Source: Leptogorgia sarmentosa (lineage: Eukaryota). Taken from it: 64,000 bases of DNA. The position numbers and the translations under genes were made by a program. Shown here one piece after another: positions 6,736-63,027 of the stretch (position 1 is its first letter; each line of letters opens with the position of its first letter). The stretch spans positions 13,020,001 through 13,084,000 of the forward strand of contig OZ210885.1 in the NCBI GenBank assembly GCA_964658305.1. The letters are read 5' to 3'. Below the pieces are notes generated by a model. It saw only the letters and a program-made list of their open reading frames with translations, was not told where the DNA came from and did not search any database.

Positions 6736-7067
6736 TCAACCTTTTGGTTGGAGTTCTTTTGAATGCGAGGATAACTTATTAAGACGTAGGAAGCAGACCC
6801 GACCTCCTGCCAGGCCAACACAAACCATTCCATTTGAGCCACACGCGATGGCTAAAACATCCCGGTCGAAATGAAACTCTTCAACACGCTCTCCATTCGG
6901 TAGGTTCCACAGTTTCAGCGTCTTCGTATCATAAAAATCAGAGCACGACAAAAGTGATTCACCTCCAGGCGCTAATGCCAACGCACTGATCCATTCAGCA
7001 ATTTGAATTGGAAATCTGTGGAGAACCTTTCCAGTTCTGAAGTTCTCAATCACCAAAGAACCACGAC
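6736..7067 (-). CDS. STAND gene exon 15 (last): final WD40 repeats and stop
   Basis: Acceptor ttttag; WISALALAPGGESLLSCS...LKLWN...VGLAGGRVCFLRL; TGA at 6738-6736; AATAAA about 50 nt downstream. Confidence 0.9.

Positions 7068-63027: not shown

Follow-up and report, generated by a model that had tools for sequence, protein, structure and literature searches.

An Apaf-1-like NB-ARC-WD40 gene with a predicted HEPN ribonuclease head in Leptogorgia sarmentosa

Here we report an intact, spliced gene from Leptogorgia sarmentosa in which a HEPN head and an NB-ARC ATPase are carried on one transcript. The gene lies in a 64,000-nucleotide stretch of DNA (contig OZ210885.1, positions 13,020,001 to 13,084,000), referred to here as the window and numbered from its first letter. 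We propose, with a probability of roughly 0.6, that its product is a likely cytosolic, Apaf-1-like NB-ARC immune receptor in which oligomerisation pairs the HEPN heads into a predicted RNase. HEPN-STAND receptors are already known from corals and oysters. What appears to be new is the placement of a HEPN domain on an Apaf-like NB-ARC-APAF1_C-WD40 body, which we did not find in the (mainly open-access) literature, where an unlabelled mention may exist since this head escapes Pfam.

Gene structure and splicing

The gene occupies the minus strand from 63027 to 6736 and is modelled as 16 exons encoding 1696 aa with no internal stop. All 15 introns are bounded by GT-AG, and the open frame runs for 5,091 nt across 56 kb. 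The head is encoded by the coding part of exon 1 (62442..63027, aa 1-195; all exons on the minus strand). It is followed by a linker that begins as helix in exon 2 (61542..61636, 95 nt, aa 196-227) and is a likely coiled coil, by heptad count, in exon 3 (59089..59272, aa 228-288). The sequence-only reading had joined 15 exons into a stop-free frame; a similar frame is indeed open, at 1661 aa, but it lacks exon 2 (61636-61542). That exon was exposed by aligning to the window the best match of exon 1, a protein designated P0001, to which 19 of its 26 aligned residues are identical; its sequence is present in P0001 and in a second relative, P0138.

The splicing of the head onto the ATPase was observed directly. 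Contigs from runs X4 and X5 contain the joints 62442>61636, 61542>59271 and 59089>55669, linking exon 1 through exons 2 and 3 to exon 4. The second of these falls one base from the modelled start of exon 3 at 59272, and the intervening letters are not known. The last joint had been anticipated from the sequence, as had the presence of head and ATPase in a single transcript. The other predicted junction, 62442>59262, is absent among the joints listed (15 of 45), and exon 3 begins at 59272 instead of 59262. We considered exon 1 as a separate transcript and rejected this on the same X4 and X5 joints.

These two runs are two samples from one study; their depth is exon-enriched and RNA-like, but none of the five runs that cover part of the stretch, these two included, is on record as RNA. 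Runs X1 and X3 show depth across the introns and zero depth at the three joints between exons 1 and 4. On the evidence of that one study, the gene is expressed. Splice contigs were compared over 54000-63200 in these four runs, so direct junction evidence reaches exon 6, whose sequence was matched by hand to a loose end at 54148 of X4 and X5, and later junctions rest on homology. In the contigs compared, a few letters in every 100 disagree with the window; their source may therefore be a different individual or a near relative.

A splice acceptor at 63036-63035 receives an upstream non-coding exon, seen as loose ends at 63035 in X4 and X5. Read by hand (consensus agreement 0.8 and 0.64), these ends would set a stop in frame and three codons ahead of the ATG; an additional N-terminal domain is therefore not expected. 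The motif of this non-coding exon is absent from the minus strand of the window.

The N-terminal head

We regard the head, with high confidence, as a HEPN domain, and assign it to a CXorf38/DUF4559-Swt1-like HEPN subfamily in which the catalytic-type R and H are conserved, upholding what had been read from the letters. The RNPWAH motif (62578..62595, minus strand; R145-N146-x-x-x-H150) stands at the end of a predicted helix spanning residues 133-149. Among 109 close relatives, R145 and N146 are each kept in 108 and H150 in 107. A profile search of the head against 1.84 billion representatives returned 558 matches at E<=0.001. In the best 150 of these 558 50%-cluster representatives (157 matched stretches), R and H are jointly kept in 122 of the 131 stretches that span the motif, and their columns rank among the ten most conserved. 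An upstream D114-x-S116 (62680..62688, minus strand) is invariant in the close relatives (109/109) and frequent in the distant set (D in 129/142, S in 133/140). By analogy with D134 of CXorf38 (10.64898/2026.05.28.728550), D114 is a candidate partner acid. Shuffling aa 1-195 20,000 times produced R-x4-6-H in 46% of cases and R[NDH]xxxH in 3.2%; the case for a HEPN domain is thus built on conservation and profile links and not on the motif by itself.

Exon 1 searched against Pfam matches no family at E<=0.1. At the same threshold, 81 of the 109 close relatives match HEPN_Swt1 and 37 match DUF4559. The DUF4559 cut-off (27 bits) is passed by four of 54 family members (P0305, P0318, P0354 and P0362, at 28-37 bits), all of which match the exon-1 family profile at E<=1.3e-34. 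When aa 1-200 of the relative P0002 stood in for exon 1 as an Atlas query, the neighbours at score 0.96 were clusters with HEPN_DZIP3 or DUF4559 on 11% of their members. HEPN_DZIP3 (PF18738) was found in none of the 109 close relatives, and its sole match among the 54 family members is in a second domain of P0256 (aa 248-308). Against solved structures, the head profile gave two matches only, at E 0.17 and 1.8.

The comparison of folds, proposed earlier as a check on aa 1-195, came out mixed. An AlphaFold model of the head (pLDDT 94) has as its top match among 48,161 chains the C-terminal domain of yeast Swt1 (Z 7.1, rmsd 3.4, 119 residues aligned), with Csm6, a HEPN toxin and AbiA at Z 5.5-5.6. 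But unrelated helical bundles score about level with Swt1 (Z 6.9 and 6.5), a Z of 7.1 lies within the tool's unremarkable range, and Foldseek against the PDB returned nothing at E<=0.001. A second structure comparison placed bromodomains and Csm6 on top.

The same head is found on many bodies. Among 46 long relatives scanned, these comprise nSTAND3-ankyrin, NACHT-LRR, NB-ARC-TPR, Roc-COR, AIG1 GTPase, kinase-KEN, Death and PARP14-like architectures, a variety that would suit a mobile immune effector. The proteins P0358, P0300, P0284, P0304, P0256 and P0260 illustrate the range, with the subfamily set on a kinase plus RNase L-type KEN, on an AIG1/GIMAP GTPase, at the C-terminus of Roc-COR proteins, in tandem with a DZIP3-type HEPN, or doubled. 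The subfamily has no Pfam model of its own and, with its 558 representatives mostly below Pfam cut-offs, is under-annotated, so receptors of this kind are undercounted. The NB-ARC core of the present gene occurs in none of the best 150 of the 558 head-profile matches (top score 25 bits), which indicates that the Apaf-like HEPN fusion is rare.

Conservation of this kind could also be kept by a head that binds RNA or a partner without cutting, in which case the receptor would be a scaffold and the head would serve as adaptor, as decoy or as an additional sensor, a role suggested before for the paired HEPN domains of Swt1. The domain that its fold matches best is listed as probably inactive in the accessible part of PMC3710099, CXorf38 has been modelled as occluded or autoinhibited (10.64898/2026.05.28.728550), and conservation at W148, C151 and several structural positions is about as high as at R and H, so that the constraint could be structural. 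Against this, the R and H pair persists in the diverse stretches described above, over many unrelated architectures, and the CXorf38 group is predicted to be active in the same part of PMC3710099. We consider a non-cutting head unlikely and favour the predicted RNase.

The NB-ARC-WD40 body and its switch motifs

The body follows the order NB-ARC, winged helix, APAF-1 helical domain and WD40 propellers, and single exons clear the relevant Pfam cut-offs (NB-ARC 23.5, APAF1_C 22.8 bits), in agreement with the architecture first read from the sequence. Exon 4 (55332..55669) encodes the N-terminal half of the NB-ARC with Walker A (NB-ARC 24.7 bits); exon 5 (54149..54791) encodes Walker B, sensor-1, the GxP site and the start of the winged helix (NB-ARC 70.2 bits); and exon 6 (52931..53341) encodes the MHD-type LHD and the APAF-1 helical domain (APAF1_C 45.2 bits). 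A NACHT-type ATPase was considered and rejected: NACHT scores 14.5 bits, below its cut-off of 26.7, while NB-ARC passes.

Exon 7 (51644..51889) completes the helical domain and opens the first WD40 blade, with 51 of 82 residues identical to P0001. The WD40 region, of about 900 aa, continues through exon 8 (49067..49285; Pfam WD40 51.8 bits), exon 9 (45244..45453), identified by alignment to relatives, and exons 10 (37789..38026) and 11 (36734..36966), identified by Pfam scan together with such alignment. The acceptor of exon 10 at 38026 was picked by homology, 38062 being likewise in frame. The remaining exons were compared with P0138: exon 12 (34571..34671) is WD40-like with 19/32 residues identical, exons 13 (25618..26020; 72/132) and 14 (23564..24165; 134/199) encode propeller blades, exon 15 (14525..14774; 34/81), of three candidates the only one with a strong donor, encodes divergent blades, and exon 16 (6736..7067; 62/105) supplies the final WD40 blades and the stop codon.

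Every motif named in the sequence-only reading is present on the minus strand where it had been placed, RNPWAH (62595-62578) included. Walker A (GMGGLGKT, 55529-55506), Walker B (LVILDDVW, 54776-54753), the arginine of sensor-1 (TTRN, 54695-54684) and the MHD-type motif (LHDL, 53309-53298) are all intact. In the GxP region (DLPLAL, 54512-54495), the glycine is replaced by Asp at 54512-54510 (D-L-P for G-L-P), a position held by Gly in 12 of the 13 other animal-clade rows. The Asp could represent an allelic variant, or the switch could be altered in this copy.

It is conceivable that the family works as described but that this copy, its switch impaired by the Gly-to-Asp change, is a paralogue that is decaying, tuned down or acting as a helper. 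Two neighbouring residues differ, CGDLP here versus CRGLP in most paralogues, with Arg turned to Gly preceding the Asp, and the introns are full of mobile elements. The long open frame with canonical splice sites speaks against decay, as do the spliced forms and the intact state of the remaining switch motifs and of RNxxxH, and we hold an impaired copy to be quite improbable. A working receptor remains our preferred reading.

Relatives and the origin of the head

Of 1155 longer candidate proteins, 14 matched exon 1. P0001 (1205 aa, from a 4084-nt contig) ranks first; it has the same head, NB-ARC and WD40 and is 58% identical over aa 2-1135 of the gene product. Its record stops at the exon 11/12 junction and is possibly incomplete, and its linker has grown as a 7-residue tandem repeat (aa 260-320). 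P0138 aligns end to end, with 54% identity over aa 1-1689. Dendronephthya proteins named ‘APAF1-like’ by NCBI are 52-53% identical from aa 287 on, and every exon has a counterpart in relatives. The other exon-1 matches are mostly Dendronephthya, Mytilus or unnamed proteins with ATPase, TPR, beta-helix and MYND domains. P0002-P0013, named ‘uncharacterized’ by NCBI, form an expanded HEPN-NB-ARC-TPR-beta-helix-MYND family common to Dendronephthya and Mytilus.

The core was searched with aa 346-845 of P0001, giving 157 proteins at E<=1e-20 among 7996 scored; the following refers to the best 120 of these 157. The top matches are Dendronephthya, Xenia and unnamed proteins (344-664 bits), among which soft-coral paralogues headed by DED or DEATH-like domains reach 524-664 bits. 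Next come presumed prokaryotic TIR-like NB-ARC-WD40 proteins (235 and 209 bits) and an amphioxus protein (166 bits); the same stretch scores 83-85 bits against human APAF1 and up to 74 against plant NLRs. Presumed prokaryotic TIR-like NB-ARC-APAF1_C-WD40 proteins (P0146, P0147, P0163 and others) are thus closer to the core than vertebrate APAF1 is, with the TIR-like head calls weak or made by eye. A HEPN head is carried by 3 of 121 core-bearing proteins (these 120 and the gene model). P0137 has a DED head by Pfam, and the heads of P0135/P0403, P0136 and P0139 are homologous to it; for the Xenia proteins, a DEATH-like head was recognised by eye and finds weak support (E 5.5e-4 among 13 sequences).

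These scores and heads suggest that the body is probably not an APAF1 orthologue; the trees described below were built without CARD-APAF1. It had been supposed that the HEPN domain stands in place of a CARD, a claim that is not supported, the nearest relatives being headed by DED or DEATH-like domains on a core distant from human APAF1. That the gene is a true APAF1 orthologue, activated by cytochrome c and shorn of its CARD, is very improbable: among PDB entries the core matches APAF1 best, APAF1_C passes its cut-off and NCBI names the Dendronephthya paralogues after APAF1, but the core is nearer to the presumed prokaryotic and amphioxus proteins than to human APAF1, the sister paralogues carry other heads, and stony corals retain a separate CARD-headed APAF1 according to the available part of the PMC10236652 supplement.

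A careful core tree of 15 rows, which left out most presumed prokaryotic rows, the partial P0143 and any CARD-APAF1, unites the nine full-headed soft-coral-type rows in a 100/100 clade from which a DED protein branches first. The three HEPN proteins group together at 89/86, below the starred level, beside the DED protein P0137 and within a larger clade (98/96) that also holds proteins headed by DED and DEATH-like domains. In a quick 68-row core tree, likewise without CARD-APAF1, the animal rows fall in one clade with support of 99. Since the three HEPN versions nest among DED- and DEATH-like-headed paralogues, HEPN most likely replaced a DED pair and not a CARD.

In a 55-row tree of the HEPN domain itself, P0138 falls among TPR-type heads, apart from this gene. 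We considered two independent HEPN acquisitions; a single origin is compatible with the head data (p-AU 0.23) and stands unrejected. Alignment to the other-headed paralogues begins at the phase-1 intron between exons 3 and 4, and the exon 2-3 linker resembles, by eye, that of HEPN-NB-ARC-TPR proteins. Taken together with the trees, these features make exon shuffling of HEPN plus linker onto a DED-headed gene the simplest history, and we infer that the module of exons 1-3 was donated by the HEPN-NB-ARC-TPR family that has expanded in these animals. We put forward more tentatively, at somewhat less than even odds, that one such event exchanged a DED pair for an active HEPN RNase in a soft-coral Apaf-like gene, leaving chassis 52-54% identical beneath caspase-recruiting and RNA-cleaving heads. 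If this swap took place, it would amount to an experiment done by nature, through which animal HEPN-STAND receptors could feasibly be shown to be oligomerisation-gated RNases, and the DED-headed sister paralogues would allow the same switch to be compared with caspase-recruiting and nuclease output.

Relation to known receptors

The novelty first implied for this architecture was overstated, as HEPN-headed STAND proteins of cnidarians and molluscs, along with the hypothesis of RNase action, appeared in the literature as early as 2013. In the accessible part of PMC3710099, CXorf38- and DZIP3-type HEPN domains are fused to NACHT in cnidarians, with apoptotic or antiviral RNA cleavage proposed, and cnidarian and cephalochordate proteins join CXorf38/DUF4559 HEPN domains to NACHT, ankyrin and DEATH. 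This family shares RNxxxH and the upstream Asp with our gene (PMC3710099; Pfam PF15112), but an NB-ARC-WD40 fusion was not found in that part of PMC3710099.

Many HEPN-NACHT-WD40 and HEPN-NB-ARC-TPR genes are described in five stony corals in the available sections of PMC10236652, where orthogroup OG0000097 (coral DZIP3-HEPN-NACHT-WD40) counts 316 genes in 11 corals; HEPN-STAND expansions are likewise reported, in the portions at hand, from pearl oyster (PMC9646362) and octocorals (PMC8260672), the latter with 83 HEPN-NACHT proteins in Dendronephthya. As far as these three sources are available, the coral and bivalve DZIP3-like HEPN-NACHT-WD40 and HEPN-NB-ARC-TPR proteins resemble this gene in having an N-terminal HEPN with Rx4H, a central STAND ATPase and C-terminal repeats, with an RNase role proposed. 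The published WD40-bearing receptors use NACHT, in contrast to the NB-ARC and APAF1_C found here, and their coral heads are DZIP3-like, whereas this head is closer to DUF4559/Swt1. In the part of Additional file 16 of PMC10236652 available (200 WD40 places), NACHT is present in every row with HEPN and WD40; five of these rows also list NB-ARC, all within the NACHT orthogroup. The accessible supplement further contains one DUF4559,NB-ARC gene in Pocillopora and seven APAF-1-helical rows, which are CARD- or DUF4062-headed and in none of which HEPN appears. No such fusion was found in the available text of PMC8195603 or 10.64898/2026.09.21.753143. The gene thus lies outside the NACHT-type HEPN family, and would work like the known HEPN-STAND receptors and SAMD9.

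Head exchange on this chassis has precedents. Zmasek et al. (2007; PMC2246300) described, in the part available, invertebrate Apaf-1 paralogues with DED (Nematostella) or with DEATH or TIR (amphioxus) in place of CARD. Their NB-ARC-WD40 body with DED or DEATH heads is that of this gene's nearest relatives, but the heads are all termed protein-interaction domains there and none is a HEPN nuclease. Vertebrate APAF1 and the prokaryotic Apaf-1-like STAND proteins, which include bacterial ones with a protease head (PMC12803255, available portion), have the same order of NB-ARC, winged helix, helical domain and WD40; relative to vertebrate APAF1, this gene has no CARD, a distant core and its long WD40 region.

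The gene adds an Apaf-1-like NB-ARC-WD40 chassis to the HEPN-headed STAND receptors, of which hundreds are annotated in corals and bivalves. Were it active, STAND sensing would lead straight to RNA destruction by a second route in animals, next to that of SAMD9, with a bearing on coral antiviral defence or the killing of infected cells. The nuclease of SAMD9 is AlbA/Schlafen-like, and its sensor is TPR-like rather than WD40. Human SAMD9, an animal STAND-like sensor with an intrinsic N-terminal RNase, has been shown experimentally to cleave tRNA-Phe on poxvirus infection (PMC10246899), another reason why an RNA-cutting animal STAND-like protein is not without precedent. SAMD9/SAMD9L have the layout proposed here, and this gene would work in the same manner, but the SAMD9 nuclease fold differs from HEPN, PMC10246899 itself contrasting SAMD9 with the HEPN protein PrrC. 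Our search of the mainly open-access literature found no functional test of any animal HEPN-STAND receptor.

Proposed mechanism

In the model that we favour, the WD40 propellers would sense a trigger, and before ligand binding the WD40 region would hold the ATPase in a closed state. Exchange of nucleotide would then drive oligomerisation of the ATPase and assembly of a ring, in which the exon 2-3 linker could let the HEPN heads pair into a composite active site, HEPN RNase catalysis requiring a dimer with such a site (10.64898/2026.05.28.728550). The paired heads would cut RNA, and the cell would be halted or killed without a caspase adaptor. Autoinhibition, the forming of a ring and the pairing of HEPN domains, as well as RNA as the substrate and the involvement of a ligand, are all proposed solely from analogy to APAF1 and SAMD9. 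Among Apaf-1-like proteins, binding of dsDNA is reported in the available part of PMC11747288.

Other elements in the window

A tRNA cluster lies at 220-1363, in which ARAGORN places Gly (220-292, plus strand), Glu (380-455, plus), Thr (771-843, minus) and Asn (1291-1363, plus), and Rfam gives a fifth tRNA match at 991-1070 (plus). Several introns contain mobile elements. Intron 14 holds a non-LTR retrotransposon remnant (17514-21264, minus strand) with a coiled-coil ORF, an APE endonuclease (E 6e-11) and a reverse transcriptase (E 9e-15) in several stop-separated pieces, adjoined by an AGAT microsatellite at about 17200-17300. Intron 12 includes likely DNA-transposon cargo: a THAP domain on the plus strand (28735-29049), which passes its cut-off at 30.9 bits, and an intronless ORF of 418 aa on the minus strand (30390-31643) carrying a weak C2H2 finger.

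Intron 3 contains a nested palindromic element at 57194-58103 whose arms are 97-98% complementary. Its depth in X1 and X3 is far above that of its flanks, and some contigs skip it (57195>58103); we interpret it as a high-copy MITE-like insertion that is missing from some haplotypes or copies. Further long inverted repeats within introns, typical of MITE or foldback elements, are found at 15449-16351, 49603-50115, 35215-36244 and 8341-10575.
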